The notes under the pieces: model-generated
What the model was told of the DNA's origin: nothing
What the model saw: the letters and a program-made list of their open reading frames with translations, nothing else
Database searches by the model: none
Part shown: positions 9,369 to 56,396 of the stretch, one piece after another
How positions within the stretch are numbered: position 1 is the stretch's first letter
How the letters are laid out: the number at the start of each line of letters is the position of its first letter
NCBI GenBank assembly: GCA_040904565.1
Contig: JBBDTI010000067.1
Location: 22,567 to 86,566, forward strand
Direction of reading: 5' to 3'
DNA: 64,000 bases
Source of the DNA: Rhodothermales bacterium
GTDB taxonomy: Bacteria > Bacteroidota > Rhodothermia > Rhodothermales > VXPQ01
Program-made: the position numbers and the translations under genes

Positions 9369-9385
9369 ATGTTCTCCGGAAGCGC

Positions 9386-11917: not shown

Positions 11918-12125
11918 CGGTTTGCCGGCGCCTCGTTTTCCCACTTCCTATTATGTGTGGAGGCCGTAGCCCCGACCGACGGCGTCGCCGATCGGATGGC
12001 ATGTGAAGACGGGACGGCTCCCCGGCAAGGTGTCCAAAAGGTCTCGCGCCTACAGCACGTCCACGACCTTCTGGCGGTTCGGACGGGCGACACGTTTGGC
12101 GGCGCGGCCCGAAATACCCGGCTGT

Positions 12126-14141
12126 ATGTATTTACTTGAAGGTATGGTACGAGCGTTCTCTTTGGATCTACTCGCCGCATCACTCACGGCCGTACTGCTC
12201 GTGGCTGCGTGTGCCGGTTGCGCAGGTACGGAGGATGGCGAAGAGGCCGTCGCCGCGTATCGCAATCTCGATCCGGACGTGGCGTACGTCGGCCGGGAAG
12301 CCTGCCGCTCGTGCCACCCGGACAAGTACGAGACGTTCGTGGAGGCGCAGATGGGACGGTCGATCAAACCCGCGCATCCCGACGAAAGTGCGGCCCGATT
12401 CGATGGGGTCGATCCCGTTTACGACGAGGCGCTCGACCTGTATTATCGACCCGAGCGGTGGGGCGACGATCTCTTCGTCGTCGAGTATCGACTGGCGGAC
12501 GGCGACACGACCCACAAGCGGACCGAGCAGATCGACTTCATCGTCGGGTCGGGCCAGCATACCAACTCCCACATCATGTCCGTGAACGGTTACCTGTATC
12601 AGATGCCGCTCACGTGGTACGCGCAGGACGGAAAATGGGACCTTCCGCCCGGCTTCGACGGGGGCAACAACTCCCGCTTCGATCGGCCGATTCCGGAAGC
12701 CTGTATGACGTGCCACAATGCGATGCCCGGGTTTGTGGACGGATCGGAGAACCAATTTTCGCACGTACCTGCGGGCATCGATTGCGAGCGATGTCACGGC
12801 CCGGGTGCCCTGCACGTCGAAGAGAAAGAGGCAGGGATGATCGTCGACACGTCGGTCCACGTCGACCGTTCCATCGTAAACCCGGCACGTCTGCCGCTCG
12901 ACCGGCAGTTCGATGTCTGCCAGCGGTGCCACATGCAGGGTGCCACCGTGTATGCGCCGGGGATGGGCCCAGGCGATTTTCGGCCGGGTATGGACCTGTC
13001 GGACGTGCTGAACGTGTTCTGGCCACGTTATGCGGACAGTACGCAGCAATTCATTATGGCCTCGCACCCGGATCGCATGCGGATGAGCGCGTGCTTCACG
13101 GGCAGCCACGAGGAGGGGGCGAGCTTCGAACCCATGACGTGCACGACGTGCCACGATCCGCACGTGCCGATCGAGGCGCTGGGGTCGGATCATTACCGGG
13201 ACGTGTGCCAGTCGTGTCACGAGCCGGAGGAGCTCCACGCCGATGGCGTAGATGCCATGGCTGCCGGTGCGTGTACGGAGGAGATCGTTCTCCGCGAAGA
13301 GGTCGGCGACGACTGCGTGCAGTGCCACATGCCGGTGTCCGGGTCGACGGACATTCCTCACGTTCGCGTCACGGATCACTTCATCCGCGTCGTCGACACG
13401 ACCGGTAGCGTGAACGATGCGGACGTGGATGCGGCGAAGCGGTTGATCGGGCTGGCGAGTCTGATCGACGATGCGCCAACCCCCCGTGAGCGTGCGGAGG
13501 GATTCATGACCTACTTCGAAGAGGTCCAGAACCGGCCCGATTTTTTGGATTCGGCGGCCGTGTTAGTGGATCGGGCCGTGGAGGAGCAAGGGCCGACCGC
13601 CGTCGCTCCTTCCCTCGTGCGGTTACATCACCTGCAGCGCGATTTTGACGCGACGGTCCGGCTGAGCCGCGAGATCGCCATGGCCGAGATCGACGAGCCC
13701 TGGACCCACTATCGTGTCGGTGAAGCCTATCAGACTGTCGGCAACGTTCAGGAAGCGATCGTCTACTTCGAGGAAGCGGTGCGCCGATCCCCCGCTCACC
13801 TGCGCTTCCTGAACAAGCTCGGCAGCGCCTACACCGAGGCACGGCGCCTGGATGAGGCGCTCGAGGTCTTCGACCGTGTACTGAATGCCAACCCGAAGTA
13901 CGCCGAGGCTCGAAACAACCGCGGGTTCGTCCACATCCTCCAGCAGGATTTCGAGGCGGCGGAGGCAGACTTTCTCGAAGCGATCCGGCTCGATCCCGAC
14001 GCGGAAATAGCCTTCGCGAACCTCGCCTCGCTCTACTTCAACACGAATCGCCGGGAGGAAGCCAGGCCCTATGCCCGGCGCCTGGTGGAGGAGCATCCCG
14101 ACGATCCCAACTACCAGCGTCTCTGGGAGCTCGTTCGCTGA
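12126..14141 (+). CDS. Multiheme (7 x CXXCH) c-type cytochrome fused to C-terminal TPR repeats, lipoprotein
   Basis: Lipobox LLVAAC. Seven heme motifs: CRSCH, CMTCH, CERCH, CQRCH, CTTCH, CQSCH, CVQCH. C-terminal TPR-like repeats (..AYQTVGNVQEAIVYFEEAVRRSP.., ..NPKYAEARNNRG..). ATG 12126 or 12144 preferred over track start 12003. Confidence 0.85.
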   Translation: MYLLEGMVRAFSLDLLAASLTAVLLVAACAGCAGTEDGEEAVAAYRNLDPDVAYVGREACRSCHPDKYETFVEAQMGRSIKPAHPDESAARFDGVDPVYDEALDLYYRPERWGDDLFVVEYRLADGDTTHKRTEQIDFIVGSGQHTNSHIMSVNGYLYQMPLTWYAQDGKWDLPPGFDGGNNSRFDRPIPEACMTCHNAMPGFVDGSENQFSHVPAGIDCERCHGPGALHVEEKEAGMIVDTSVHVDRSIVNPARLPLDRQFDVCQRCHMQGATVYAPGMGPGDFRPGMDLSDVLNVFWPRYADSTQQFIMASHPDRMRMSACFTGSHEEGASFEPMTCTTCHDPHVPIEALGSDHYRDVCQSCHEPEELHADGVDAMAAGACTEEIVLREEVGDDCVQCHMPVSGSTDIPHVRVTDHFIRVVDTTGSVNDADVDAAKRLIGLASLIDDAPTPRERAEGFMTYFEEVQNRPDFLDSAAVLVDRAVEEQGPTAVAPSLVRLHHLQRDFDATVRLSREIAMAEIDEPWTHYRVGEAYQTVGNVQEAIVYFEEAVRRSPAHLRFLNKLGSAYTEARRLDEALEVFDRVLNANPKYAEARNNRGFVHILQQDFEAAEADFLEAIRLDPDAEIAFANLASLYFNTNRREEARPYARRLVEEHPDDPNYQRLWELVR

Positions 14142-15990: not shown

Positions 15991-17193
15991 ATGAATCGCG
16001 ACGACGTTCGATCGTTTGTGGACACGCTGCACGAACCGGCTGCCGTCTTGACGAGTCGAGGGCGCTTCCTCGTGGTGAACGATGCGTTTCAAAGCGTGCT
16101 TCGCGATGTCGATTGCCCCGGTGCCGAGCGGTTGCACGATGCGGTGGCGGACGAGGAAGACGACGTGGCGTCGTTTCTAGCCCAGGCCGCTCGCTCGCGG
16201 CCTTCCATCCAGTGCGGATTGACACTGGGTTCGGCGGCTGTGGGGCAGCGCATGACGTGCTTCGGCGGACGCCTGGATCCCGGCGACGAAGAGCACGAGC
16301 CCCACATTCTCTTACGATGCTATCGCTCGAATGAATCGGTACGGCAGTTTCAACTTCTCAGTCGAAAGATCGACGAACTGAATGCCGAAATACGCCGGCG
16401 GCAGGGCGTAGAGCGGGATCTGAGAGACATTCGGTCGGAACTCGAGCGTCGCGTAGAGAAGCGCACGTCGGAACTCAAGCGCGTCAATATCGACCTCGTG
16501 CAGCGGAACAAATCTCTCGAGGAGTTTGCCTCCGTGGCGTCGCACGACCTTCGTGAACCGCTTCGCAAGATCACGGTTTTCGGCGGCATGCTGGAAGATG
16601 AGCTCGGGCCGGAGCTATCCGATCATCACCGATCGATGCTCGAGCGCATGATCACCGCCGCCACCCGGATGAAGACGTTGATCAGAGGACTTCTGGCCTA
16701 TTCGCGTCTTTCCACGTCGGATTATTCCTTCGAAACGGTCGACCTGTCGAAGGTCGTAGACGATGTACTGGTGGACCTGGAGATCGCGGTCGCTCGTGCG
16801 GGCGCGGTCATAGAGGTCGACGCGCTGCCTCATCTCGAGGCGGACGCCACGCAGATGCGCCAGCTCTTCCAGAATCTGATCAGCAACAGTCTCAAGTTTC
16901 GGCGTCCCGACGTCTCGCCCCGCGTCGAGATTTCCTGTATGATGGATCGTGAGGGCAAACAGATTGAAATCGCCGTCTCGGATAACGGAATTGGATTCGA
17001 GTCGACCTATGCAGAGCAGATCTTCGAGCCGTTTCGGCGGCTGAACCCCCAGCACGAGTTTGAGGGATCGGGTATCGGACTCGCCATGTGCCGGCGCATC
17101 GTAGAGCGCCATGGGGGCACGATCTCGGCGACGTCGACGCCCGGCGAGGGGACGACGTTTCACATGATGCTGCCGCTGGAGGCATCGGACTAA
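15991..17193 (+). CDS. Sensor histidine kinase (PAS-like N-terminus, coiled coil, HisKA, HATPase_c), cytoplasmic
   Basis: H-box FASVASHDLREPL, N-box QLFQNLISNSLKF, G-boxes DNGIGF and GSGIGLAMC. No adjacent response regulator. Confidence 0.88.
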   Translation: MNRDDVRSFVDTLHEPAAVLTSRGRFLVVNDAFQSVLRDVDCPGAERLHDAVADEEDDVASFLAQAARSRPSIQCGLTLGSAAVGQRMTCFGGRLDPGDEEHEPHILLRCYRSNESVRQFQLLSRKIDELNAEIRRRQGVERDLRDIRSELERRVEKRTSELKRVNIDLVQRNKSLEEFASVASHDLREPLRKITVFGGMLEDELGPELSDHHRSMLERMITAATRMKTLIRGLLAYSRLSTSDYSFETVDLSKVVDDVLVDLEIAVARAGAVIEVDALPHLEADATQMRQLFQNLISNSLKFRRPDVSPRVEISCMMDREGKQIEIAVSDNGIGFESTYAEQIFEPFRRLNPQHEFEGSGIGLAMCRRIVERHGGTISATSTPGEGTTFHMMLPLEASD

Positions 17194-17195
17194 AT

Positions 17196-18506
17196 GTGCT
17201 CGTGACTGACATCCGCTACGTAAATACGACGTTCGAACGGGAGCCGCTCGTGAAGCCATTCGGTTTCAAGGGAGGCTTCCTGTCCGATCTGTGGCAGACC
17301 GTCGTTCTGCTCGAGAGCTCGAGCGGTCGATCGTCGATCGGGCTGGGGACGCAGAGCGTGTTGTGGTCGGATTCCGCCGTGTTTGCCACCCACTCGGAAG
17401 CCGGCGGCAACGCTCTCATGTTCGCCGTGCTCGAGTTTGCGGCACAGGCCGCCTGCGGACGTTCCTTCCGCACGCCGCTGGAGCTGCTCGACGGCCTGTT
17501 CGAGGAGGCCCGTGAGTATGCGGTTCGGATAACCGAGCGCCCGGACCTTCGAGCGACGTTCGTGCTGAACGCGCTGGTGGCGCTGGACCATGCCGCGTGG
17601 TTGCTTTGTGCTCGGGATAACGGATTGGGATCTTTCGATGAGATGATTCCGGAAGCGTACCGCGAGCCGCTATTGCATCGGCACGACATCGTGGCGAGCG
17701 TCCCGGCCGCGGGTTTTTCGTCGACGCGTGAGGACCTGCTCGCACTGGCGGACGCGGGCTACTTCATCATTAAGGTCAAGCTGGGTCATCCGGGTGGTCC
17801 GGAGGAGATGCTCGCGCGAGACAAACGCCGTATCGAGGAGATCCACGACGTGTTCGGCGATCGAGAGACGGCCCACACGGAATCCGGCCGGATTCCCTAT
17901 TATCTTGACATCAATGGACGCTACGATAGCATAAGTCAGTTGTGGGAGCTGGTCGAGCATGCCGATGCGGTGGGGGTGCTGGACCAAATCATATTGGTCG
18001 AGGAACCATTCCCTGAGGGGTACGAGGCGGACGTGTCGGACCTTCCCGTTCGCATTGCCGCCGACGAGAGTGCGCATACGGATGCGGATGCGCGCCGGCT
18101 CATAGATATGGGTTACGGTGCGATAGCCCTGAAACCCATCGCGAAGACCGTCAGCATGACCTTGAAGATCGCCGCCGAAGCGCACGCCCGCGGAATTCCG
18201 TGTTTTTGCGCGGACCTTACCGTAAATCCGATACTCGTCGAGTGGAATAAATGCTTCGCCGCGCGCCTCGAGCCGCTGCCCGGCCTGAACGTGGGGTTGC
18301 TCGAAACGAACGGGCATCAGAACTATCTCGATTGGGACCGAATGATGGGGTACAATCCGGCCGCGGGTGCCTCGTGGACGGAGGTGAAGGCAGGGGCGTT
18401 CCACCTCGATTCCGACTTCTTCGCCGAGAGTGGAGGGCTCTTTGAAAGCTCCTCACACTACCTTAACCTCGTCCGGCCGAGGCATCGGAGCGATGCCGGC
18501 CGCTGA
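17196..18506 (+). CDS. Enolase-superfamily enzyme (MLE/MR-like; racemase, cycloisomerase or dehydratase)
   Basis: KxK motif IIKVKLG. Candidate metal ligands in YLDINGRY, LVEEPFP and IAADES. Second catalytic Lys in ALKPIAK. GTG start 2 nt after the kinase stop. Confidence 0.78.
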   Translation: MLVTDIRYVNTTFEREPLVKPFGFKGGFLSDLWQTVVLLESSSGRSSIGLGTQSVLWSDSAVFATHSEAGGNALMFAVLEFAAQAACGRSFRTPLELLDGLFEEAREYAVRITERPDLRATFVLNALVALDHAAWLLCARDNGLGSFDEMIPEAYREPLLHRHDIVASVPAAGFSSTREDLLALADAGYFIIKVKLGHPGGPEEMLARDKRRIEEIHDVFGDRETAHTESGRIPYYLDINGRYDSISQLWELVEHADAVGVLDQIILVEEPFPEGYEADVSDLPVRIAADESAHTDADARRLIDMGYGAIALKPIAKTVSMTLKIAAEAHARGIPCFCADLTVNPILVEWNKCFAARLEPLPGLNVGLLETNGHQNYLDWDRMMGYNPAAGASWTEVKAGAFHLDSDFFAESGGLFESSSHYLNLVRPRHRSDAGR

Positions 18507-18573
18507 CAACCATCATCGTACGGTTCCGCCGCGATGCCGCCGCGCCGAGTACGACGTAAGATACACAAGAGAC

Positions 18574-19608
18574 ATGCCGCTGAACGTAGACCCGTTGAAT
18601 GAAGAGGGACTCGTGAAGGCCCTTTCACGGCCGTATCGCGAGGACGTCGACGTTGCCGGCAGACTGGACGGCGACGTGATCGTTCTGGGTGCGGGCGGCA
18701 AGATGGGTCCCACGCTCGTCGCGCGGATCGCTCGGGCGATGCAGCAGGCCGGTAGTCCACACAACGTATATGCCGTATCCAGGTACTCGGAGCCGGAGCG
18801 GTTACGGGAGATCGAGGAAGCCGGGGCAACGGCCATCTCGGCCGACCTGATGGATGAGGAGGCGCTGGCGGACCTGCCGGCGTGTCCGAACGTGATCTAT
18901 CTCGTCGGCATGAAATTCGGCGCGTCGGGCGACGCATCGCGGACGTGGGCGCTGAACGCCTATCTCCCCGGCAGGGTAGCGAGCCGGTACCGCCACGCGC
19001 GCATCGTCGCGCTGTCGACGGGAAACGTGTATCCGAAGGTGTCGCCGGCCTCCGGCGGGTGTACGGAAGAGGACCGGACCGATCCCGTCGGTGAATACGC
19101 GCAGTCATGCCTGGGCCGCGAGCGCATGTTCGAATATTTCTCGCGGAGGCATGAGACGCCGACCTGCCTGATACGGCTGAACTATGCCGTCGAGGCGCGC
19201 TACGGCGTCTTTCTCGATATTGCCAGACAGGTCTATCGTGGTGAGCCGGTTTCGGTGGAAATGGGTTACGTGAACACGATCTGGCAAGGTGATGCCAATT
19301 CGGTCTGCTTTCGGGCTCTCGAAGCGTGTGCATCGCCGCCGCATGTGCTGAATGTTACGGGACCGGACATCCTCCGCGTGCGCGACATCGCGGAGGAGTT
19401 TGGACGACGATTTGGCGTGTCGCCGGTACTGCACGGTACGGAGCAGCCGACCGCTTTTCTGAGTGACGCCGCCCGCTGTCACGCGCGGTTCGGAAAGCCG
19501 AAGGTAACGACGGAAGAGGTTTTGGATCTCGTCGCCGCGTGGGTCGACGAGGAGCGGGAGACATACGGTAAGCCGACTAGGTTTGAGGTGCGCGACGGAA
19601 GGTTCTAG
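18574..19608 (+). CDS. NAD-dependent epimerase/dehydratase family protein
   Basis: Rossmann motif VIVLGAGGKMG and SDR-extended architecture. ATG 18574 preferred over track start 18430. Confidence 0.8.
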   Translation: MPLNVDPLNEEGLVKALSRPYREDVDVAGRLDGDVIVLGAGGKMGPTLVARIARAMQQAGSPHNVYAVSRYSEPERLREIEEAGATAISADLMDEEALADLPACPNVIYLVGMKFGASGDASRTWALNAYLPGRVASRYRHARIVALSTGNVYPKVSPASGGCTEEDRTDPVGEYAQSCLGRERMFEYFSRRHETPTCLIRLNYAVEARYGVFLDIARQVYRGEPVSVEMGYVNTIWQGDANSVCFRALEACASPPHVLNVTGPDILRVRDIAEEFGRRFGVSPVLHGTEQPTAFLSDAARCHARFGKPKVTTEEVLDLVAAWVDEERETYGKPTRFEVRDGRF

Positions 19609-19710
19609 CGCCGCTGTTCGCCGGTGCGATCCGGCCGTCGTTTCTGGCTGCGACGCCGGGCCATGTGCTCATCTCGTAGCGTCGGGAAGGTCCAGCCGTC
19701 GTGGCAGGAT

Positions 19711-19780
19711 GTATCAACAGGTATCGGAGACATCCCAAAGTCATCCCATAGTGACGTATCAAATGACGTATCCGACGTGA
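19711..19780 (+). promoter_or_regulatory. Cluster of phased short direct repeats in a gap inside the operon (candidate operator / internal promoter)
   Basis: GTATCaacagGTATC; CATCCCAaagtCATCCCA (19731/19742); TGACGTATCaaaTGACGTATC (19752/19764), followed by cGACGTGA. Spacing is 10-12 nt. Confidence 0.4.
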
Positions 19781-20796
19781 GGCTACGCGAGCGACTACTG
19801 GACGGACTTGTCATCCCTGCGCACCCGCTCGCGATCAACGCGAACCGGCGCCTCGATGCGCGCCGGCAGCGTGCGTTGTCGCGCTACTATCTGGCGGCGG
19901 GGGCGGGTGGACTCGCCGTCGGCGTGCATACGACGCAGTTCGAGATTCACGATGAGAATATGGGGCTGTATCGTCCCGCCCTGGAACTGGCTGCGGACGT
20001 TGCCGGGGAGGTGTCCGCCTCACCGGTGCTGGTGGCTGGTCTCGTAGGCGATACCGAGCAGGCCGTTGCCGAGGCCCGTTTGGCGAAGGACCTTGGATAC
20101 CACTGCGGCCTCCTTAGTCTCAGCGCGTTCGCGGAAGCATCCGAGGACGCCATGATCGCACACGCCGCTGACGTCGCCGACGTATTGCCGGTGTTCGGCT
20201 TCTATCTTCAGCCCGCCGTAGGCGGACGGTCACTCTCTTATAGATTCTGGCGGCGGTTCGCGGAGATCGAGCATGTCGTCGCCATCAAAATCGCTCCGTT
20301 CGACCGCTATCGAACGATCGATGTCGTTCGGGCCGTAGCAGACTCCGGCCGCGGCCGCGAGATCGCCCTTTACACGGGCAATGATGACCAGATCGTACTC
20401 GATCTACTCACCAGGTTTCCGTACGATGATCTGTACGTAGCGGGCGGGCTGCTCGGACACTGGGCGGTGTGGACGCGCCGGGCCGTGGAACTATTCGAGC
20501 GGATCCGGTCCGTTCGCGACCGGGATGAGATTCCAGCCGACCTGCTTACGCGCAGCGTCGAGGTGACCGAGGCGAACGCCGCCCTGTTCGATCCGCCCAA
20601 TGCATTTGCCGGATGTATTCCTGGAATTCACGAAGTGCTCCGGCGCCAGGGACTGCTCGAGGGTGTGTGGACGCTGAACCCCGATGAGGCGCTGTCCCCC
20701 GGACAGCGTGAAGAGATCGACCGGATCTATCACACCTACCCGCACCTGACCGATGACGAATTCGTTCGCGAGCATATAGACGAGTGGCTGAAATGA
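19777..20796 (+). CDS. Dihydrodipicolinate synthase / N-acetylneuraminate lyase-like class I aldolase family protein
   Basis: TIM-barrel DapA-like pattern (LVIPAHPLAI..., GGLAVGVHTTQFE, candidate Schiff-base Lys in VVAIKIAP). Start uncertain: GTG 19777, ATG 19663 or track start 19624. Confidence 0.72.
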   Translation: MRLRERLLDGLVIPAHPLAINANRRLDARRQRALSRYYLAAGAGGLAVGVHTTQFEIHDENMGLYRPALELAADVAGEVSASPVLVAGLVGDTEQAVAEARLAKDLGYHCGLLSLSAFAEASEDAMIAHAADVADVLPVFGFYLQPAVGGRSLSYRFWRRFAEIEHVVAIKIAPFDRYRTIDVVRAVADSGRGREIALYTGNDDQIVLDLLTRFPYDDLYVAGGLLGHWAVWTRRAVELFERIRSVRDRDEIPADLLTRSVEVTEANAALFDPPNAFAGCIPGIHEVLRRQGLLEGVWTLNPDEALSPGQREEIDRIYHTYPHLTDDEFVREHIDEWLK

Positions 20797-22037
20797 CATC
20801 AAAACCATCGGAACGGCAGTCGACAGGAAGCCGCCTCCGCACGTGGCTGCAGCGGGTTGGCCCTGCGCTCGTCCTGGCCACGGTCGTTATCGGGCCGGGC
20901 ACCCTGACGCTCAATACCATCGCCGGTACGACGTATGGATATGCCTTGCTCTGGGTCCCGCTGGTGGCGACCGTGTTCATGATCGTCTACACGTGGTTGT
21001 CTGCCCGGATCAGCCTGGCGACCGGGGAAACGCTCTTCGAACTTGCCCGCGCCCGCTACGGTCGGTCGGTAGCGGTCGTCGGCGGTATCTTCGCGTATCT
21101 GGCCGTGCTCGCCTTTCAGGCCGGCAACAATGCGGCCGTCGGATTTGCCGCGGAAGCCCTGTTCGGACTGACCCCCCGGAGCTGGGCGGTGCTGTTTTTT
21201 GTGCCCGCGCTCGGCCTCATCTTCCTCCCGAATCTCTACGGCAAGATCGAGCTGCTCGTGAAGGTCGTGGTCGGACTCATGCTGCTGTCATTCGTGGGCA
21301 CGCTCGTGATGGTGGGCATTCAGCCGGATGCGGCGGTTCGCGGCATCGTGCCCTCGTTCCCGGACACGGAAGCCATCTTCCTGACGCTGGGTATGGCGGC
21401 GACGACGTTTTCCATCGTGGCCGCCGTGTATCAGGGCTACCTGATGAAGGAGAAGAAATGGGGGCCGGACGAGCTGGCCGGTGAAGGGGTGGACACGCTG
21501 ATCGGCATCGGCATCCTCGGCGGCATTTCCACGGTCATTTTGCTGACGAGCGCGGGAGCGATCTATGCGGCGGGCGGCGATCCCATCTTCTCGGCGCAGG
21601 GCATGGCGGCCCAGCTCGAGCCCCTCGTGGGATCGTCGGCGTTCTACCTGTTCACTATCGGCTTCTTTTTCGCCAGCTTTTCCTCGCTGGTCGTAAATCC
21701 GCTCATCGGCGCGACGCTGCTGGCCGACGGGTTGGATCGGGACGCGTCGATGGACGGGAAACCCGTCAAGCTGTGGACGTCGATTGCCATGGCGGCCGGA
21801 CTCCTTGTCGTGCTCGTGTTCGAGGCGCCGCCCGTTGAGCTCATTCGCTTCGCGCAGGGTCTTGCCGTCGTCGCGTTCCCGCTGCTCGGCTTCCTGGTCC
21901 TCACTATCGCGCGGGACCGCGACGTCATGGGCGAATATGCGAGCCGGACCTGGATACACGTCGTGGCCGTCATCGGCTATATCACGATCGTCGGTATCGT
22001 CCTCAATTACCTCCGGCAGATCGCGGCCGTATTCTAG
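20793..22037 (+). CDS. Nramp-family (MntH-like) membrane transporter
   Basis: About 11 predicted TM segments. N-terminal GPALVLATVVIGPGTLT motif typical of Nramp. Its ATG overlaps the upstream stop (ATGA at 20793-20796). Confidence 0.82.
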   Translation: MTSKPSERQSTGSRLRTWLQRVGPALVLATVVIGPGTLTLNTIAGTTYGYALLWVPLVATVFMIVYTWLSARISLATGETLFELARARYGRSVAVVGGIFAYLAVLAFQAGNNAAVGFAAEALFGLTPRSWAVLFFVPALGLIFLPNLYGKIELLVKVVVGLMLLSFVGTLVMVGIQPDAAVRGIVPSFPDTEAIFLTLGMAATTFSIVAAVYQGYLMKEKKWGPDELAGEGVDTLIGIGILGGISTVILLTSAGAIYAAGGDPIFSAQGMAAQLEPLVGSSAFYLFTIGFFFASFSSLVVNPLIGATLLADGLDRDASMDGKPVKLWTSIAMAAGLLVVLVFEAPPVELIRFAQGLAVVAFPLLGFLVLTIARDRDVMGEYASRTWIHVVAVIGYITIVGIVLNYLRQIAAVF

Positions 22038-22039
22038 CC

Positions 22040-23143
22040 ATGCTTCGTATTCCTCTCCTTTCATCGCGTCCAGTAGGCATCCCGGCCATGCCCGCTCGAT
22101 ACGCCCTGCGCACGCCCCTCCGCTTATTGGCAGGGTTCGTCGCCGCATTCCTCGTGCTGGTCCTGGGAGCCGGCGTCGCTCGCGGAAGTGCCGTCGTTTT
22201 CGGTAACGACCCCGCGGACACGGTGCGCGTGGGGATGATCGGGCTGGATACGTCACACAGCACGGCCTTCACGCGTTTGATCAACGCGCCCGATGCTGAA
22301 GGCCTGTTCCAGCGTTACGAGGTGGTCGCGGCGTATCCGTTCGGCAGCCGGACGATACGGTCGAGTTACGAACGGATCCCGGGTTACACGGAGGAGGTGC
22401 GGGAGATGGGGGTCGAGATCGTCGATTCCATCCCGGAGCTCCTGGCGATGGTGGATGTCGTGCTGCTGGAAACGAATGACGGAAAGCCCCATCGCGAACA
22501 GGCGATGCAGGTCATCGAGGCGGGCAAGCCGCTGTTCATCGACAAACCCGTTGCGGCGGACCTCGCCGACGTGCTCGCCATCTACGATGCGGCCGAGGAG
22601 ACCGGCGTGCCTCTCTTTTCCTCTTCGTCCCTTCGGTACATGGAGCACGCGCAGGACGTGCGCAGTGGGAGCATCGGTTCCGTTCGAGGCGCCTTTACGT
22701 ACAGTCCAGCCGCACTCGAACCCTCACACGTGGACCTCTACTGGTACGGCATTCATGGGGTGGAGGCCTTGTTTACGGTGATGGGGAGCGGATGCGCGCG
22801 CGTCGTACGGACGTTCAGCGACGGGGCGGAGGTCACGACGTGCCGGTGGGCGGACGGCCGCATCGGGACGTTCTACGGGATTCGCGAGGGGCGGAGTGAC
22901 TACGGCGGCACGGCCTTCGGCGATAGCGCGGTCGTCGCGCTCGGGCCCTACGGAGGGTATGAACCCCTGGTCGAAGCTATACTGGCGTTCTTCGAGACGG
23001 GTACGCCGCCCGTCCCGGCACGCGAAACCATCGAGATCTACGCCTTTATGTCCGCCGCCGACGAAAGCAGGCGGCGGGGTGGAGCTCCGGTGTCTCTGGA
23101 GGAGGTCATTCGGGCGGCCCGAGCCGAGGCATCTCCCGAGTGA
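22040..23143 (+). CDS. Exported Gfo/Idh/MocA-family NAD(P)-binding oxidoreductase
   Basis: N-terminal hydrophobic signal or anchor (LLAGFVAAFLVLVLGAGVARG), then VRVGMIGLDTSHSTAF Rossmann start and ..ETNDGKPHREQA... Starts 2 nt after the transporter stop. Confidence 0.83.
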   Translation: MLRIPLLSSRPVGIPAMPARYALRTPLRLLAGFVAAFLVLVLGAGVARGSAVVFGNDPADTVRVGMIGLDTSHSTAFTRLINAPDAEGLFQRYEVVAAYPFGSRTIRSSYERIPGYTEEVREMGVEIVDSIPELLAMVDVVLLETNDGKPHREQAMQVIEAGKPLFIDKPVAADLADVLAIYDAAEETGVPLFSSSSLRYMEHAQDVRSGSIGSVRGAFTYSPAALEPSHVDLYWYGIHGVEALFTVMGSGCARVVRTFSDGAEVTTCRWADGRIGTFYGIREGRSDYGGTAFGDSAVVALGPYGGYEPLVEAILAFFETGTPPVPARETIEIYAFMSAADESRRRGGAPVSLEEVIRAARAEASPE

Positions 23144-23251: not shown

Positions 23252-24757
23252 ATGTCGATCCGGTATCTCATCTCGGCACTGCTTCTCTTCTTGATGGTCA
23301 CCCGCGTCGGTCCGGCCGACGCATCGCGCCCGGACACCGTTCGAAACATCGTCATCTTCATCGCCGACGACCACGGCCGGGATACGGGGGCCTACGGCAA
23401 TCCCGTCATCCGGACGCCCAACCTCGATGCGCTGGCGGAAGAGGGAACGCTCTTCACGCACGCGTTTGCCACGACGGCGAGCTGCAGTGCGAGCCGCTCC
23501 GTGATTCTGTCCGGTCTCCACAATCATCGGAACGGACAGTACGGCCACACGCACGATTTCCACCACTTTCAGACCTTCGAGCACGTTAAGTCGCTGCCCG
23601 TCCTACTGGCTGAAGCGGGATACCGGACGGCCTCAGCCGGGAAGTACCACGTCGCGCCGGAATCGGTCTTTCATTTTGAGGAGTATATCGACGGCGATTC
23701 GCGCGACGTCGTGACGATGGTCGATAACGCACGTCCGTTCCTGGAACGAGATGCGGAAGAACCCTTCTTTTTCTACCTCGGCACGAGCGATCCCCATCGC
23801 GGCGGCGGGTTGATGGCGGGGGACACGGAAGCGACCTATGGTGACGATGAGGCGTTCGCCCCGAACCGGTTCGGCAACCGGCCGGGCGGCTATCCCGGCA
23901 TCGAGGAGGTGCAGTACGACCCCGACGACGTCATCGTACCGCCCTTTCTTCCCGATACGCCCGTTACGCGTGCCGAGCTGGCCCAGTACTACCAGTCCGT
24001 TTCCCGCATCGACCAGGGGTTCGGATATCTGGTGGATGTCCTAAAGGACGCGGGTGTCTACGAAAACACGCTCATCATCTACATGTCGGACCACGGAATC
24101 GCCATGCCGGGCGCCAAGACGACGGTCTACGAACCCGGACTGCGATCCCCGCTGATCGTGCGTCACCCCGACCAGTCCGATCGCGGCGTCGTCACCGATG
24201 CGATGGTCAGCTGGGTGGATATCACGCCGACCCTGCTCGATTATGCCGGCGTCGAGGAGCCGACGTACGACCAGCACGTCGGTCTTGAGGACGTACGCCG
24301 GCACCTGCCCGACCGGCATGGGCTCCACGGCCGTTCTTTCCTCTCCGTGCTTGAGGGCGAGGAGGCCGAAGGCCGTGACGCGATCTACGCGTCGCACACC
24401 TTCCACGAGATCCAGATGTACTATCCGATGCGCGTCGTGCGGGACCGGGACTACAAGCTGATATGGAACGTCGCCCACGACCTTCCATACCCCTTCGCCG
24501 CCGACCTCTGGGATGCCTCCACCTGGCAGCACGCCTATCAGCAAGGGCTCGATACCCCGTTCGGCGGACGTACCGTGCGCGAGTACATGCACCGTCCCGC
24601 CTTCGAGCTCTTTGACGTGCGGGTCGATCCGTTGGAGTCCGAAAATCTCGCTTATCGGCCGGGCTATGCCGACGTGCTGGCAGCATATCAGGCTATGTTG
24701 TGGCAGTTCGAAGTGAGAACGTCCGATCCCTGGCTACTCAAGTGGGAGTACGAGTAA
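23252..24757 (+). CDS. Sulfatase (S1 family, N-sulfoglucosamine sulfohydrolase-like)
   Basis: Signal peptide. IADDHG...NLDALA..G..F, Cys-type active-site motif SCSASRS...SG, later SDHG. Confidence 0.9.
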   Translation: MSIRYLISALLLFLMVTRVGPADASRPDTVRNIVIFIADDHGRDTGAYGNPVIRTPNLDALAEEGTLFTHAFATTASCSASRSVILSGLHNHRNGQYGHTHDFHHFQTFEHVKSLPVLLAEAGYRTASAGKYHVAPESVFHFEEYIDGDSRDVVTMVDNARPFLERDAEEPFFFYLGTSDPHRGGGLMAGDTEATYGDDEAFAPNRFGNRPGGYPGIEEVQYDPDDVIVPPFLPDTPVTRAELAQYYQSVSRIDQGFGYLVDVLKDAGVYENTLIIYMSDHGIAMPGAKTTVYEPGLRSPLIVRHPDQSDRGVVTDAMVSWVDITPTLLDYAGVEEPTYDQHVGLEDVRRHLPDRHGLHGRSFLSVLEGEEAEGRDAIYASHTFHEIQMYYPMRVVRDRDYKLIWNVAHDLPYPFAADLWDASTWQHAYQQGLDTPFGGRTVREYMHRPAFELFDVRVDPLESENLAYRPGYADVLAAYQAMLWQFEVRTSDPWLLKWEYE

Positions 24758-24845
24758 TCACACATTGAAGGTTGACCGGGGTACGCGTACACTATCGGGG
24801 GTCTTGGTGGTACATGTTATCGTGCATTTGACTCATAAGAAAATC

Positions 24846-26249
24846 ATGACACAATCGGCTCGATGGATCGCCCCGGCGGTCGTTCTCCTTCTCCTCCTGG
24901 CCGCATGCGACGCGCCGCAGCCCGCGGGCGAGGATGCGTCCCCTCCCAACATCGTGCTGATCGTCGCGGACGACCTGGGTTACGGTGACCTCGGGGCTTA
25001 CGGCCAGCAGGAGATCATGACGCCGCGCCTCGATCGCATGGCCGAGGAAGGCCTGCGATTCACGCAGTTCTATGCGGGTTCTACGGTCTGCGCGCCTTCG
25101 CGCAGCGTGCTGATGGAAGGACGCCACACGGGCCGCACGTATATCCGCGGCAACAAGGAAGTTCGGCCGTATGGACAGGAGCCCATCCCGGATTCACTGG
25201 TGACGATGGCGGAGGTGCTGCAAGAGGCGGGGTACCGCACCGGACTGGTCGGTAAGTGGGGTCTCGGCGGTCCGGATACGCCGGGCCATCCCAACAATCA
25301 GGGATTCGATCACTTCTTCGGCTATCTCGGGCAGCGCCACGCGCACAATTACTACCCGGAGTTTCTCTTCTATAACGAGGAGCGGGTAGACGTGCCGGGA
25401 AACGTCCTGCCGGAACCGCGCCGCGGTGACGGCGCGGGCGAAGCGATAGAAAAAGTCACCTACAGCCACGATCTCTTCGCGGATTCAGCGCTGGCTTTCA
25501 TCGATCGGAACAGGAACCGGCCGTTCTTCCTGTTTATGGCGCTCACCATTCCCCACGCCAACAACGAGGCGGGAGACCGGGGTATGGAGGTGCCCGACTA
25601 CGGTCCGTACGCGGACGAGGAGTGGCCCGAGCCGGCGAAAGGGCTCGCGGCGATGATCTCGCGCATGGATGCCGACGTAGGAAGGGTGCTGGATCGCCTC
25701 CAGGAGCACGGTATCGCGGAGAATACGCTCGTGCTGTTCACCAGCGATAACGGTCCGCATGCCGAGGGGGGCAACGACCCCCACTATTTCGATTCGAATG
25801 GGCCCCTGCGCGGGATCAAACGGGATCTCTACGAGGGCGGCATTCGCGTACCGACGATCGCCTGGTGGCCGGGACGCGTCGAAGCAGGGTCGCAGACGGA
25901 TTACGCGGGCTACTTCCCCGACCTGCTGCCGACGTTTGCCGACCTGGCCGGCACGGCTCCACCCTCAGATATCGATGGCCTCAGCATGGTACGGACTCTG
26001 ATGGATCGACCGGCCGATCAGGAGAACCACGAGTATCTCTACTGGGAATTCTACGAAGGCGGGATGGCGCAGGCCGTTCGAATGGGCTCGTGGAAGGGTG
26101 TGAGACTGCCTGACGGCGAGATCGAGCTGTTCGACCTCGAAGAGGATCTGGGTGAAACGAACGACGTGGCCGCGGAGCATCCCGACGTGATAGCGCAAAT
26201 CGGGGCCGTGATGGAAGAGGCGCACCATCCGTCGCCCCTCGACTGGTGA
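24846..26249 (+). CDS. Sulfatase (S1 family, arylsulfatase / GalNAc-6-sulfatase-like) lipoprotein
   Basis: Lipobox LLAAC. VADDLGYGDLG, CAPSRSVLMEGRHTG, SDNGPH. ATG 24846 preferred over track start 24765. Confidence 0.9.
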   Translation: MTQSARWIAPAVVLLLLLAACDAPQPAGEDASPPNIVLIVADDLGYGDLGAYGQQEIMTPRLDRMAEEGLRFTQFYAGSTVCAPSRSVLMEGRHTGRTYIRGNKEVRPYGQEPIPDSLVTMAEVLQEAGYRTGLVGKWGLGGPDTPGHPNNQGFDHFFGYLGQRHAHNYYPEFLFYNEERVDVPGNVLPEPRRGDGAGEAIEKVTYSHDLFADSALAFIDRNRNRPFFLFMALTIPHANNEAGDRGMEVPDYGPYADEEWPEPAKGLAAMISRMDADVGRVLDRLQEHGIAENTLVLFTSDNGPHAEGGNDPHYFDSNGPLRGIKRDLYEGGIRVPTIAWWPGRVEAGSQTDYAGYFPDLLPTFADLAGTAPPSDIDGLSMVRTLMDRPADQENHEYLYWEFYEGGMAQAVRMGSWKGVRLPDGEIELFDLEEDLGETNDVAAEHPDVIAQIGAVMEEAHHPSPLDW

Positions 26250-26440: not shown

Positions 26441-28966
26441 ATGGTGACCGTCGTACGATTACTCCTGGCCGGTATCGTTGTCGCGTCCCTTCCTTTTGGG
26501 AGCGTGTGGACGGGAACGTGGATCCGGTCCGTCGAAGCGGCGGATGCGCAGGTCGTCGATCGCCGCGGCACGTCCGATCGGCTCGCTGACGCGACGCCCG
26601 CGATCGTGCCGCATCCACAGGAGGTCCGATGGGAGCAGGGTACGCTTCATCTGCCCATCCTCCGTAGCATCGTCCTGGGACGTGGCGCGACGGACGGTGA
26701 CCGGTTCGCGGCCGAGCTGATCCGTGACGAGCTGGAGCGACTGGACGTCGACGTGACGGTTGACTATGAGGGACCGGAAACGGCCGATCACGCGTCGATC
26801 TCCATCCGGCGGGCTACCGATCTGCGGGACGATGCCTATCGCCTGAGGATATCGCGCGAGGGGGCGGTTATCGAGGCGGGCAGCGAACGGGGGCGGTTCT
26901 ACGGCGCCATGTCCCTGATCCAGATCGTGCGTGCGGAGGGAGGAAGGGTGCCGTCCATGCGCGTTTTCGACTACCCGGACCTCGCCGTTCGCGGCGTGAT
27001 GGACGACCTCGTCCACCAGATTCCGAAGCTGGAAGAGTTCAAGCGCATCATTCGGTTTCTGGGAGAGCATAAGATGAACGCGTACGTCCTGCCGGTCGAA
27101 GGGCTGTTTCGGTTCGGTGTGGACCCGACGGCGGGCATGGGTACCGTGTCGGTAGAGGAGCTGATCGAGCTCCAGGACTATGCGGCCTCCTATCACGTAG
27201 ACCTTATTCCGGCCCTGCGCACGCTCGGCCATTTCGAACGCCTGCTCCGCTTACCCGAGTTTGACGGCCTTGCCGAGTACCCCGGTGCATCCACATTGAA
27301 CACGCAGGATTCGGCAGCCTACAAGTTCGTCGGGCGGCTTCTGGACGAAATCGTGCCGGTCTTCCGGTCCGACTACGTGCATATCGACGGTCGGCGATCC
27401 GACGACGTGGGTATTGGTGCGAGTGCGGAGGCCGTCGATTCTCTCGGTGTCCACGGCGTACACCTCCAGCATTACAGCCGGGTCGCAGAGCTGGTCCACG
27501 CCCGCGGGAAGAAAGTAATGATCGGCGGAGACGATCTCCTCGATCCGAATTATGGCGGCGTAGCTGACGATCGACACGCCGACAACCTTTCCTTTGCCGA
27601 CGTGGTGGTTACGGATGCGCGGCGACTGTCATCTATCCGGGATCGCAGCAGCTGGACGTCCATGCTTCTTTCCAGCAGCGATGTCCGTCCGCCGGATCGC
27701 GTGTTTCCGGATTTCGCGGCGGCGCGGTCGAGCGTCTCCCGGTCGGCAGAGCAGGCGGCCGACGGGGGTGCAGCCGGACTCCTGGCTGCCGTTCGAACGC
27801 GGGACGATGCGCCGGTCTTGCGCGCGATGCAGCGACGAGAGTACGCCTATGCTGCCGATCGAAGCTGGAACACGGATCCTGAGACGGCGGATATAGACCG
27901 GCGCATCAATCGTGTCTTCTATGGATTTGACGACGCAGCAATGCACCGTCTAGCCGGCGCAATTGGGCGTATGACGGACGAAGTCGTTTATCCGGATGTT
28001 TGGCGCCATCCCCTCCATCATGCGCCATCGATGGCGGCCGTCGTTGAACTCTCCACCGTTCCACCGGCCACGGACTCGCGTCGGGAGGCAGAAATGCTGC
28101 TAACGGAGATAGAACACCTGCAGACCCTGGTTGCGAGGAATGCACAGCAGCTCGACTACTACGCATTCGCCGTGCGCTTTACGGCCTGGCTGCAGGACAC
28201 GCAGGCGCTGGCGTCCTGGATGATGGAAGCTCGTCGGACGGATTCGGAACGTTCGACGCTGGATCGCGGTGCCCGCTGGGCGCGGGCGCTCACCGGTGAA
28301 GGCAGGTCGCTGGCGCAAGCGTATCGCTCGCTCTGGCTACGCTCGAACCGGGACGTTCACCTCGATCGGGCCCTCGACGCGTTCCGGTATCAGGTGGGTT
28401 ATCTGGAACGGATCGCCGAGACGCTGGAAGAAGGATCCTGGGACGTGAGAACGACCCTTCCGAGCCGATTTGTCGGAGCTCCCGACGGTGCTTCTCGGAC
28501 GGTCCTGCGTAAGACGTTCGTACTGGAACGAGGCCAGGTGGAGGTAGCCTACCTGCAGGTCGCCGGGCGAAACGACGTGAACGTGTGGCTGAATGGAAAC
28601 CGCGTCGGACAATCCGTAGGTCCGCAGTGGTCGGGTGTAGACGTCTGGAATGTGGCACCCCGTCTGCGTTCCGGTGAGAACGTCCTCGCGGCGGAAGTAG
28701 TGTATCGGGGTCCTGATGAAGAGATGCCTGCGCTGGCCAACATCTACCTCGAAATTCGCTTCCAGGATGGCAGGCGGCGATACGTAGGAACGGATCGGAC
28801 GTGGAAGGCCGGCGGAGCCGCGGATACGGGTTGGCAGCGGAGCGCGTTCTCCGATGCGAGCTGGCAGCAGGCCGTCACGCCGGCGACGACGCGGATACTC
28901 ACCGTGCCCTTGTTCGATCGGAGCCTACCTTCGAAGTACGAGCGCGTTGGCTCGACCCCACCGTGA
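26441..28966 (+). CDS. GH20-like glycosidase (GH20b-type N-domain plus TIM barrel) with a C-terminal rhamnosidase-N / galactose-binding-like domain
   Basis: Signal peptide. VPHPQEVRW..GTL, RFYGAMSLIQIV and FDYPDLAVRGVMDD are typical of GH20/GH84-type domain 1-2 junctions. C-terminal LRKTFVLERGQVEVAYLQVAGRNDVNVWLNGNRVG resembles bac_rhamnosid_N. Confidence 0.72.
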   Translation: MVTVVRLLLAGIVVASLPFGSVWTGTWIRSVEAADAQVVDRRGTSDRLADATPAIVPHPQEVRWEQGTLHLPILRSIVLGRGATDGDRFAAELIRDELERLDVDVTVDYEGPETADHASISIRRATDLRDDAYRLRISREGAVIEAGSERGRFYGAMSLIQIVRAEGGRVPSMRVFDYPDLAVRGVMDDLVHQIPKLEEFKRIIRFLGEHKMNAYVLPVEGLFRFGVDPTAGMGTVSVEELIELQDYAASYHVDLIPALRTLGHFERLLRLPEFDGLAEYPGASTLNTQDSAAYKFVGRLLDEIVPVFRSDYVHIDGRRSDDVGIGASAEAVDSLGVHGVHLQHYSRVAELVHARGKKVMIGGDDLLDPNYGGVADDRHADNLSFADVVVTDARRLSSIRDRSSWTSMLLSSSDVRPPDRVFPDFAAARSSVSRSAEQAADGGAAGLLAAVRTRDDAPVLRAMQRREYAYAADRSWNTDPETADIDRRINRVFYGFDDAAMHRLAGAIGRMTDEVVYPDVWRHPLHHAPSMAAVVELSTVPPATDSRREAEMLLTEIEHLQTLVARNAQQLDYYAFAVRFTAWLQDTQALASWMMEARRTDSERSTLDRGARWARALTGEGRSLAQAYRSLWLRSNRDVHLDRALDAFRYQVGYLERIAETLEEGSWDVRTTLPSRFVGAPDGASRTVLRKTFVLERGQVEVAYLQVAGRNDVNVWLNGNRVGQSVGPQWSGVDVWNVAPRLRSGENVLAAEVVYRGPDEEMPALANIYLEIRFQDGRRRYVGTDRTWKAGGAADTGWQRSAFSDASWQQAVTPATTRILTVPLFDRSLPSKYERVGSTPP

Positions 28967-49851: not shown

Positions 49852-49856
49852 GGCAG

Positions 49857-50807: not shown

Positions 50808-50811
50808 GGGC

Positions 50812-52290: not shown

Positions 52291-52388
52291 GCCGAGCTAC
52301 TTCTGGAGAACGCTTCCACCTACGGAGAGAAACGCGGCGCAGCGGGTCGATGGTATCGCACGCAGTGGCATCTGTACGACCGTTGGTA

Positions 52389-53483: not shown

Positions 53484-53600
53484 GTCTGATGGCCTCCTGT
53501 ATCGTGGTCGATGACGTCGGTCTGCGGTGAAAGGTTGGATCCCGCGCTTTCCATGGAACACGCGCGCAGGGGGGCTCAGTTTCGCAACGTCTTCCATTCC

Positions 53601-55944: not shown

Positions 55945-56396
55945 GTCGATGCGACGAAGGAGTTCCTCCGGCGCAGTCTATTCGGAACGTCGGGTGGGTC
56001 GTAGGGTCGGTCCGGCAGGCAGGTGCCGGGCAACATGTATTGACTACGACGCGCGATAGAAAAGAATTCCACCCATTCTATGGGTCGCACGTCACTGTAC
56101 ATGAGTGGCACAAAATCAAGGCAGATGGGTGGTTCTATCACTCTTCCCAGGGCTCGTCACACTTGCGCGGCGCGACGAGCGGCATAGACGAGCATTCAGC
56201 CGCAATCTTGTCCTCGAGATGGGTCAGGCCGATCCTCAGTCGCGTTCGCTCCCCGAAATTCGAAACGTGTTCGGATCGTTTCAATTTCCGTCTCTTGGAG
56301 ATTGTCTATCGGGTCACGTACCGCTACCTTGTGTGGGAATTAGTTGCGGTTTCCCCAGCCGCGTTCCTCACGATAAGAATAGCCGGACTCTGTGCG

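Follow-up and report, generated by a model that had tools for sequence, protein, structure and literature searches.

Non-phosphorylating sugar catabolism joins a dehydrogenase, a lactonase, an acid-sugar dehydratase and a Schiff-base aldolase, with no kinase (PMC11199699); in route 1 for L-fucose, L-rhamnose and pentoses these are a sugar 1-dehydrogenase, a cog3618 lactonase, an acid-sugar dehydratase and a DHDPS-family 2-keto-3-deoxy-acid aldolase. Other systems that bear comparison are the oxidative D-galacturonate pathway of Agrobacterium tumefaciens (Udh, Gli, Gci and KdgD), the 3,6-anhydro-galactonate cycloisomerases (DauB/AHGA, 5xd9), which are enolase-superfamily enzymes of sulfated-galactan loci, and the oxidative chitin route for GlcNAc1A (OngB; PMC9537276, PMC12017989), which handles an oxidised amino sugar as though it were an N-acetyl-D-amino acid. 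Here we analyse a 64,000-nucleotide stretch from a Rhodothermales bacterium (assembly GCA_040904565.1, contig JBBDTI010000067.1, positions 22,567 to 86,566 of the forward strand; hereafter the window), which carries at positions 17196-23143 a module of five genes encoding an enolase-superfamily enzyme (ENOL), an SDR-like oxidoreductase (SDR), a DHDPS-like protein, an Nramp-like carrier and an exported Gfo/Idh/MocA-like protein (Gfo8). We give an even chance to the reading that we favour, namely that the module catabolises a carboxylate-bearing sugar derivative (a sugar acid, lactone or amino-sugar acid) from sulfated glycans through unphosphorylated intermediates.

The module and the genes on either side of it are as follows, in window coordinates; domains are from a scan of open reading frames (ORFs) of at least 250 residues against Pfam.

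15991-17193, + strand: soluble histidine kinase (HisKA plus HATPase_c; Pfam), start probable
17196-18506, + strand: ENOL, divergent enolase-superfamily enzyme of predicted MLE-subgroup type; GTG start; MR_MLE_C, 47 bits against a cut-off of 29
18574-19608, + strand: SDR, extended-SDR-like NAD(P) oxidoreductase; Pfam Epimerase, 43 bits
19777-20796, + strand: DHDPS-like, class I aldolase-like protein of the DHDPS/NAL superfamily; NCBI-type GTG start, in an ORF from 19624; DHDPS, 29 bits
20793-22037, + strand: Nramp-like, PF01566 Nramp-fold carrier; Pfam Nramp, 223 bits against 29.8
22040-23143, + strand: Gfo8, exported Gfo/Idh/MocA-like protein; GFO_IDH_MocA N-domain, 45 bits against 24
23252-24757, + strand: S1 sulfatase (Pfam); signal peptide present, formylglycine motif CSASR
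24765-26249, + strand: S1 sulfatase with a CAPSR motif; probable ATG start near 24846, which gives a lipoprotein-like signal
26441-28966, + strand: GH20-like protein with a signal peptide; GH20b domain plus a weak catalytic-domain match
29115-31928, + strand: GH2 glycosidase; ORF opens at 28854, likely start at 29115 before a signal peptide

All genes from xylA (14284) through the end of the GH2 gene (31928) lie on the + strand. The intergenic gaps within the module are 67, 168, -4 and 2 nucleotides, the Nramp-like start overlapping the DHDPS-like stop as ATGA. An earlier interpretation made from the letters alone (the sequence-only reading) had described five closely spaced, co-directional genes running into sulfatases and glycosidases; gene calls and Pfam agree with it in placing two sulfatases, the GH20-like gene and the GH2 gene next, and the Pfam matches bear out its family labels for all five proteins (MR_MLE_C, Epimerase, DHDPS, Nramp and GFO_IDH_MocA). 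Its statement that kinase and KDPG-type genes are lacking holds for the scanned ORFs, among which, the histidine kinase aside, neither a kinase nor a KDPG-type aldolase was found; a non-phosphorylating route would explain the missing kinase, and this absence fits such routes. No TonB-dependent receptor or SusD-family protein was found among the scanned ORFs, nor with them the adjacent SusC/SusD-like pair that marks a polysaccharide utilisation locus of Bacteroidota type. Rfam (including riboswitches) and tRNA scans found no elements, and the G+C content of the window is 60-66%. Within the 168-nucleotide gap between SDR and DHDPS-like (19609-19776), a short GC-rich hairpin precedes a T-rich tract (19620-19645). 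The two may form an internal attenuator, the count of such elements in the scan being no higher than shuffle expectation. ENOL starts 2 nucleotides past the stop of the histidine kinase, which makes the latter a possible sensor for the module; the same order is kept in a 64%-identical relative (L041-L043; loci recovered by homology are numbered in this way throughout). The response-regulator gene nearest to the kinase lies 6.5 kb off on the minus strand (8214-9389).

Pfam sees only the C-terminal barrel domain of ENOL, and the highest NCBIfam scores lie far below their cut-offs (24.9 against 400 bits for DgcA, 20.5 against 288 for OSBS and 19.2 against 335 for muconate cycloisomerase). The nearest solved relatives are 4gfi when a single sequence is searched (E 0.005) and 3s5s with a family profile (E 2e-5). 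A filter-only phmmer search of 1.84 billion 50%-identity cluster representatives gave 487 relatives at E<=1e-3 and 113 at E<=1e-30, and because just 487 proteins reach the looser threshold the family is a sequence island, isolated from other members of the superfamily; with clustering at 90% there are more than 5,700 matches, and homologues are 55-69% identical across phyla. The full MLE-type residue set noted in the sequence-only reading is confirmed, since K193 and K195 (KVK), D238 (DINGRY), E269 (VEEPF), D290 (AADES) and K313 (LKPIAK) are invariant in 25 homologues and, in an AlphaFold model (predicted local distance difference test, pLDDT, 93; predicted template-modelling score, pTM, 0.92), sit at the ends of predicted barrel strands 2 (both lysines of KVK), 3, 4, 5 and 6. 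The metal ligands D238, E269 and D290 terminate predicted strands 235-238, 265-269 and 287-289, respectively. The protein thus combines a capping domain and a modified TIM barrel with the three carboxylate ligands, the KxK motif and the strand-6 lysine of the MLE subgroup; strand 6 ends in Lys313 and strand 7 has Asp340 and no invariant His, so that the His/Asp dyad of the MR subgroup is absent. As modelled, the active site has the MLE-subgroup signature, unlike the His-Asp pattern of mandelate-racemase-type acid-sugar dehydratases, and the enzyme is predicted to be Mg2+-dependent and to abstract a proton alpha to a carboxylate. Characterised acid-sugar dehydratases of the enolase superfamily use a His-containing base.

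All top Foldseek matches of the ENOL model belong to the enolase superfamily (E 1e-19), the first neighbours being OSBS/N-acylamino-acid racemases, dipeptide epimerases and muconate cycloisomerases at 15-21% identity and template-modelling (TM) scores of 0.55-0.66. Many sub-families rank near-equal, for ENOL as for the DHDPS-like protein, and the ranking does not discriminate between functions. Clustering with dipeptide epimerases, which the sequence-only reading had named as the outcome that would speak against a carbohydrate role, is not what we find: such epimerases are among the nearest folds, yet only at the identities just given. The comparison with DauB/AHGA cycloisomerases did not survive, in that 5xd9 is absent from the phmmer and profile matches at E values up to 1 and ranks 34th in Foldseek at 17% identity. 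A literature search found no paper describing the ENOL family or the five-gene cluster.

Export is the rule in the ENOL family. A twin-arginine (Tat) signal (SRRxF[IL]K...) is present in 30 of the 37 species-level loci with an intact ENOL N-terminus, one homologue is named by NCBI as a twin-arginine signal protein, and a Salinivenus locus (L001) has both the full module and a Tat signal on ENOL. The window ENOL carries no such signal, the upstream frame overlapping the kinase gene and containing neither an RR motif nor a hydrophobic core, and the signal is also absent from its closest relatives (L041-45 and L049/50). We know of no characterised periplasmic member of the enolase superfamily.

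With all 8,000 scored candidates significant, the DHDPS-like family is a very large one, and its members share 62-76% identity across Bacteroidota, Anaerolineae, Caldilineae and Acidobacteriota. In 80 metagenome loci, the gene directly upstream of DHDPS-like is SDR at least 50 times out of 73; contig ends or probable antisense-ORF artefacts of the simple gene caller would account for many of the other cases. The two form an independent, very widespread core pair that is far commoner than their linkage to ENOL. The DHDPS-like protein retains what the sequence-only reading had expected of a class I aldolase: K171 aligns with the catalytic Schiff-base lysine of 1xky, Y143 with Tyr133, and HTTQFE with the GTTGE of DHDPS, so that the TIM barrel, the strand-6 lysine, the tyrosine and the Thr-Thr motif of the DHDPS/NAL class are all present. 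NAL and DHDPS are the top folds for its model (pLDDT 92). At 15-20% identity it is equidistant from sialate lyases, DHDPS, HOGA and L-KDA dehydratase, and it scores 17.9 bits against a cut-off of 206 for the NCBIfam DapA equivalog. In the SDR family, GAGGKMG and the catalytic-type Ser and Tyr are conserved, the lysine expected at Tyr+4 is C, A or R (Cys in the window), and there is an invariant KFG upstream; TerB is its closest solved relative.

The Nramp-like protein matches PF01566 over profile positions 4-355 of 357 and scores 122 bits against a cut-off of 430 for the NCBIfam MntH model. Asp and Asn in transmembrane segment (TMS) 1, with Ala, Met and His in TMS6, are the metal and proton determinants of Slc11, and the PF01566 outgroup has other specificities (PMC9606685). 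Aligned with solved Nramps, the protein has GPGT for DPGN in TMS1 and TTFS for MPHN in TMS6, and the metal-ligand Asp, Asn, Met and His are replaced in nine of nine members of the clade that stands beside SDR/DHDPS; a second Nramp-like type found beside ENOL (L040 and L009) is also without the metal motifs. A canonical MntH role was rejected because these ligands are lost, and because every Slc11 metal ligand is gone the protein probably imports an organic solute. In L040 (11460-15290), this second type is represented by two tandem Nramp-fold genes with G[GS]G[TS] and GIN[QM], one on each side of a GNAT gene, immediately downstream of a Tat-signal ENOL; a FAD_binding_2 protein and a GHL10 protein come next.

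Gfo8 was proposed in the sequence-only reading to be exported, and an N-terminal hydrophobic export segment is indeed present in the window protein; members of this large family (55-78% identical across phyla) bear Sec-type or Tat signals. Across 18 homologues an invariant G-[IM]-IGLDTSHS stands where the GxGxxG loop would be expected, and DKP takes the place of EKP. The closest solved relative is 1,5-anhydrofructose reductase, a generic match. Gfo8 adjoins ENOL in three loci that lack SDR/DHDPS (L007, L033 and L038) and adjoins SDR/DHDPS in one that lacks ENOL (L051), while in L134 it is followed by PhoD-like, sulfatase, GH20 and AP_endonuc_2 genes. In Planctomycetes (including among L134-L136) the gene comes directly after, or overlaps, a larger Gfo/Idh/MocA-family gene of about 433 codons, a possible sign of two subunits working together or of a non-redox function.

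The neighbours of ENOL and of SDR/DHDPS in other genomes indicate what kind of substrate may be involved. In L044/45 the stop of an amidohydrolase gene overlaps the ENOL start, and its product belongs with the L-fucono-1,5-lactonase family (261 bits, E 2e-77, against a cut-off of 400). In at least five loci (L003, L004, L005, L008 and L040) a Tat-signal Gfo protein of about 460 residues and a Tat-signal xylose-isomerase-like barrel lie directly ahead of a Tat-signal ENOL; the nearest family for the Gfo protein is that of the BT_2158 glycoside 3-dehydrogenases, at 150 bits, which falls short of the cut-off, and its closest structures are 8tdf and 8tdh (E 1e-25), the glucuronide-3-dehydrogenase 8tdi also being among the matches. 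A cytochrome-c/DUF7133 protein, a weak-scoring member of the PVC-type haem CxxCH 'membrane-bound dehydrogenase' family, is encoded immediately upstream of ENOL in Cyclobacteriaceae, Maribacter and Woeseiaceae, and clear members of that family flank the module in L001, L044 and L049. Taken together, the glycoside-3-dehydrogenase-like, haem dehydrogenase-like and lactonase neighbours suggest that a sugar is first oxidised, in many cases outside the cytoplasm, before ENOL receives it as an acid or lactone. The Cyclobacteriaceae loci also hold two or three sulfatases, an FGE-like gene, a response regulator and a BNR_4 protein, and in several lineages sulfatases are repeatedly found next to ENOL, to SDR-DHDPS and to Gfo8.

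A further group of partners suggests that the substrate bears an amide or amine. A two-domain GNAT protein occurs beside ENOL in L040 and in at least 12 SDR/DHDPS loci; a signal-peptide C-N hydrolase beside ENOL in L017 and beside SDR/DHDPS in L071 and L080; and an Amidohydro_3 protein beside ENOL in L014 and beside SDR/DHDPS in L072 and L081. An authentic L-serine ammonia-lyase (497 bits, cut-off 345) abuts SDR/DHDPS in L049-51. A PDB search with the GNAT neighbour was uninformative. Identification of the Amidohydro_3 protein as a D-aminoacylase (OngB) found no support, its best match being 3icj and D-aminoacylase appearing only at E ~1e-3, and GH20 was set aside as a general partner, being found only in the window and L134.

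Linkage among the five genes was examined in 39 GTDB-species ENOL loci with 8 kb flanks and in further loci from closer homologues. In 38 of the 39 there is no SDR/DHDPS within 8 kb, the Salinivenus locus alone having the other four genes. Four arrangements were found nonetheless: ENOL-SDR-DHDPS-Nramp-Gfo8 in the window; Gfo8-SDR-DHDPS-Nramp-ENOL in Salinivenus (L001); lactonase-ENOL divergent from SDR-DHDPS-Nramp-Gfo8 in L044/45; and SDR-DHDPS-Nramp convergent with ENOL in L049/50. The recurrence of the same families in four arrangements, together with translational coupling in the window, argues for selection on their linkage. All four may come from Rhodothermales-like genomes (XylA of L041 and L044 is 78-81% identical to that of the window), so that the number of independent linkage events would be small. 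Tat-Gfo, Nramp-like carriers, Gfo8 and sulfatases are accessory families common to separate ENOL loci and SDR/DHDPS loci.

The route that we favour would begin with release of a sugar by the exported sulfatases and glycosidases. The sugar would be oxidised to an acid, outside the cell in many relatives, a step to which no window enzyme is assigned, and the acid would be imported by the Nramp-fold carrier, whose metal site is lost. ENOL, which has the residues for Mg2+ binding and the Lys/Lys pair, could then take the proton alpha to the carboxylate, leading either to beta-elimination (dehydration or ring opening to a 2-keto-3-deoxy acid) or to epimerisation of that carbon. The DHDPS-like protein, with its catalytic residues in place, would form a lysine Schiff base with the 2-keto acid and cleave or dehydrate it to pyruvate or a related product, and SDR may carry out an accompanying redox step. 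Gfo8 is part of the same gene network but is given no step in this route. The proposal in the sequence-only reading of a module tied to carbohydrate-acid metabolism and sulfatases is supported. Its more specific link to anhydro-sugar acids and sulfated algal galactans is not, ENOL being no relative of DauB/AHGA.

Several observations weigh against this route. None of the five proteins reaches a curated family cut-off, NCBIfam and Pfam giving superfamily-level or sub-threshold matches only, and every pathway step is accordingly drawn from superfamily chemistry. The Lys/Lys set of ENOL is typical of racemases, epimerases and cycloisomerases and not of the characterised acid-sugar dehydratases. 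Gfo8 is without a normal dinucleotide-binding loop and the oxidation step therefore has no clear enzyme; nor is there a lactonase or an aldehyde dehydrogenase in the window. The GNAT, amidohydrolase, C-N hydrolase and L-serine ammonia-lyase genes beside SDR/DHDPS are left unexplained by a plain sugar-acid route. Co-location of ENOL with SDR/DHDPS in our sample is apparently confined to Rhodothermales-like genomes, the pair mostly occurring without ENOL, and a promoter and terminator scan gave counts equal to shuffle expectation.

Those nitrogen-linked neighbours would be accommodated if the substrate were an N-acetyl-2-amino-2-deoxy-aldonate (oxidised GlcNAc or GalNAc), chemically an N-acetyl-D-amino acid, which ENOL would epimerise at C2 or from which it would eliminate the 3-OH, deacetylation and deamination then yielding a 2-keto-3-deoxy acid for cleavage by the DHDPS-like aldolase. 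We regard this oxidised amino-sugar route as a tentative alternative and on balance unlikely. The Lys/Lys set of ENOL agrees with it, as do its nearest folds (NSAR/NAAAR/OSBS and dipeptide epimerases) and its best, very weak, NCBIfam match, to the N-acetyl-D-Glu racemase DgcA; GNAT, Amidohydro_3, C-N hydrolase and polysaccharide deacetylase genes lie beside ENOL or SDR-DHDPS (the first three in both kinds of locus), a bona fide L-serine ammonia-lyase is present in L049-L051, GH20-like or GH20 genes and sulfatases follow Gfo8 in the window and L134, and the Nramp fold falls within the amino-acid/polyamine/organocation clan. Deacetylation of GlcNAc1A by a D-aminoacylase-like enzyme provides a precedent (PMC12017989). 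However, no deacetylase, GNAT or serine-dehydratase gene is found among the scanned window ORFs, the Amidohydro_3 neighbour is not D-aminoacylase-like, GH20 is restricted as described above, and the L044 lactonase belongs to the fuconolactonase type, whose known substrates are neutral sugar lactones. An equally speculative extension, which we would not expect to hold, is that ENOL represents a hitherto unrecognised and mostly periplasmic, Tat-exported enolase branch acting on sugars oxidised outside the cytoplasm. Its most attractive form has ENOL epimerise N-acetyl-hexosaminates, or eliminate from them, in the manner of N-acyl-D-amino acids; Nramp-fold carriers that had changed from metal ions to an organic acid would import the product, and a new DHDPS-like aldolase with its SDR partner would cleave it. 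If true, sulfated amino-sugar glycans would be processed by a widespread route in which oxidation takes place outside and the acid is imported. An analogue of the Agrobacterium oxidative uronate pathway, with SDR as uronate dehydrogenase, a possible lactone isomerase, ENOL as aldarolactone cycloisomerase and DHDPS-like as keto-deoxy-aldarate dehydratase/decarboxylase, seems rather improbable. The families correspond (PF01370, PF04909 in L044, PF13378 and PF00701), MLE-type chemistry suits opening of a lactone ring, a KdgD-type enzyme needs no kinase, glucuronide-3-dehydrogenase-like Gfo enzymes adjoin Tat-signal ENOL, and the downstream GH2 and sulfatases make uronates from sulfated glycans plausible, whereas PDB and NCBIfam searches show no sequence-level similarity to Udh, Gci or KdgD, SDR is without the canonical YxxxK lysine, no 2-oxoglutarate-semialdehyde dehydrogenase is present, and the L044 amidohydrolase scores as a fuconolactonase and nothing else.

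The remaining explanations take the module further from sugars. ENOL could racemise or epimerise N-acyl-D-amino acids or peptides containing D-amino acids (e.g. cell-wall peptides), the other genes salvaging the amino acid, and its structural neighbours NSAR and the dipeptide epimerases, like the L-serine ammonia-lyase neighbour, agree with this; the GNAT and amidohydrolase partners recall the acylate-racemise-deacylate conversion of D- to L-amino acids, reportedly described by Sakai et al. in 2006 for the Geobacillus NSAR pathway and exemplified again by DgcN/DgcA. We nevertheless consider a non-carbohydrate role quite improbable, as the dominant ENOL neighbours are of carbohydrate type (glycoside-3-dehydrogenase-like Gfo proteins, xylose-isomerase-like barrels, a sugar lactonase, sulfatases with FGE, and BNR_4) and ENOL is only 15-21% identical to any racemase or epimerase. 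Alternatively, DHDPS-like and SDR could work as a DapA/DapB-like pair, the one condensing pyruvate with an amino-aldehyde and the other reducing the cyclic imine to an imino acid, with ENOL and the glycan genes as mere neighbours. Consistent with this are the equal distance of DHDPS-like from DHDPS and sialate lyases, the atypical SDR, whose relative TerB is an NADP-dependent oxidoreductase of terfestatin biosynthesis, the very high conservation of the pair across phyla (62-76% identity) and the pyruvate-forming serine ammonia-lyase adjacent in some loci. However, the pair keeps company with importers (Nramp-like and MFS), signal-peptide hydrolases and sulfatases, a pattern of catabolism or salvage, and its linkage to ENOL persists through all four arrangements, which makes this explanation hard to credit. 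Least credible is that the five genes form no functional unit and are neighbours by accident in a gene-dense, co-directional region: the rarity of SDR/DHDPS at ENOL loci (absent within 8 kb from 38 of 39) and of ENOL at SDR/DHDPS loci would follow, but not the linkage in four arrangements, the overlapping or abutting start and stop codons, or the six accessory families shared between the two kinds of locus.

Other parts of the window deserve brief mention. The sulfatase at 23252-24757 has Ala for the usual Pro in CSASR, the other four window sulfatases having CxPxR. If read from its first ATG (28854) the GH2 gene would overlap the GH20-like gene by 113 nucleotides, and the signal-peptide-like start at 29115 is more plausible. 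Convergent on the GH2 gene end, on the minus strand, is a gene for a beta-propeller protein with a type IX secretion C-terminal sorting domain (31945-33408). In a second sulfatase island (55902-63730), genes for a cytochrome c and a PF12831 FAD-dependent oxidoreductase occupy the + strand, and three sulfatase genes come after them on the - strand. Upstream (10625-14141), a GH94 'supersandwich' ORF of 430 residues, against a 1393-residue GH94 at the equivalent place in L044 (2240-6421), may have been truncated or may encode a separate domain protein, and is followed by a 712-residue TPR protein with multihaem cytochrome motifs. A co-directional run at 47598-53489, which may be a small modification or natural-product cluster, encodes a DsbD-like membrane protein, an asparagine-synthase-like protein, a radical SAM protein, a tryptophan-halogenase-like flavoenzyme and a 379-residue protein without a Pfam match, and at 43917-46031 an amino-acid permease is fused to PTS EIIA-2 and TrkA-C domains, an unusual regulatory fusion.

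Searches with each module protein return thousands of matches. The four enzyme or carrier families of the module are abundant in Bacteroidota, Rhodothermota, Planctomycetota, Verrucomicrobiota/Lentisphaerota, Acidobacteriota, Chloroflexota and some Gammaproteobacteria, none of the four has a characterised member, and they adjoin sulfatases and genes for glycan processing, which drive the turnover of carbon in the sea and in soil. Assignment of the substrate would thus annotate thousands of genes together, and could reveal an exported enolase-superfamily enzyme, a non-metal Nramp-fold carrier and a new specificity among DHDPS and sialate lyases; should the module prove an ordinary variant of non-phosphorylating sugar-acid catabolism, the gain would be better annotation and not new biology.

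Set beside the systems with which we began, the module resembles the non-phosphorylating route for L-fucose, L-rhamnose and pentoses in its SDR/Gfo oxidoreductases, its Amidohydro_2 lactonase (in L044/45), its enolase-superfamily enzyme, its DHDPS/NAL-fold Schiff-base aldolase, its lack of a kinase and the clustering of its genes with a transporter. It differs in that ENOL has a Lys/Lys pair and not the His-containing base of L-fuconate and L-rhamnonate dehydratases and is Tat-exported in most species, in having an Nramp-fold transporter and no equivalog scores, and in that the window is without a lactonase and a lactaldehyde-handling enzyme. The Agrobacterium pathway corresponds one-to-one at the Pfam level, and its cycloisomerase chemistry suits an MLE-type site, although no sequence relation is detectable beyond the superfamily, SDR departs from YxxxK and there is no semialdehyde dehydrogenase. 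With the 3,6-anhydro-galactonate systems the module shares an enolase-superfamily enzyme, but not partners of the DauA, DauC and DauD types (aldehyde dehydrogenase, KDGal kinase and KDPGal aldolase). N-succinyl/N-acyl-amino-acid racemases, DgcA and dipeptide epimerases have the same catalytic residues and the closest predicted fold, and some related loci hold the acyltransferase and deacylase partners that such racemases need; ENOL differs from them in its low identity and TM scores, about 70 extra residues, a Tat-exported family and a context dominated by carbohydrate genes. Like the GlcNAc1A route, some loci related to the module include amidohydrolases and ammonia-lyase-type enzymes, but no OngB-like D-aminoacylase was identified, and the known route ends via KDG kinase whereas the module has no kinase. 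We know of no enolase-superfamily step in that route, and of no enolase-superfamily partner described for glycoside 3-dehydrogenase/3-keto-glycoside elimination systems. The Tat-Gfo proteins and xylose-isomerase-like barrels of the latter (BT_2158; 8tdf, 8tdh, 8tdi) precede Tat-signal ENOL in several phyla and are absent from the window. The carrier shares the LeuT-fold PF01566 domain, and the absence of the Slc11-defining TMS1 and TMS6 residues, with the Slc11/Nramp outgroup and the NRMT Mg2+ transporters (PMC9606685, PMC8806188), and is unlike these in standing in a catabolic operon, translationally coupled to enzymes, with GPG[TS] and TTFS at the binding site. The module is distinctive in bringing together an MLE-type enzyme that is usually exported, an Nramp-fold carrier stripped of its metal site and an exported Gfo-like protein with a replaced cofactor loop.

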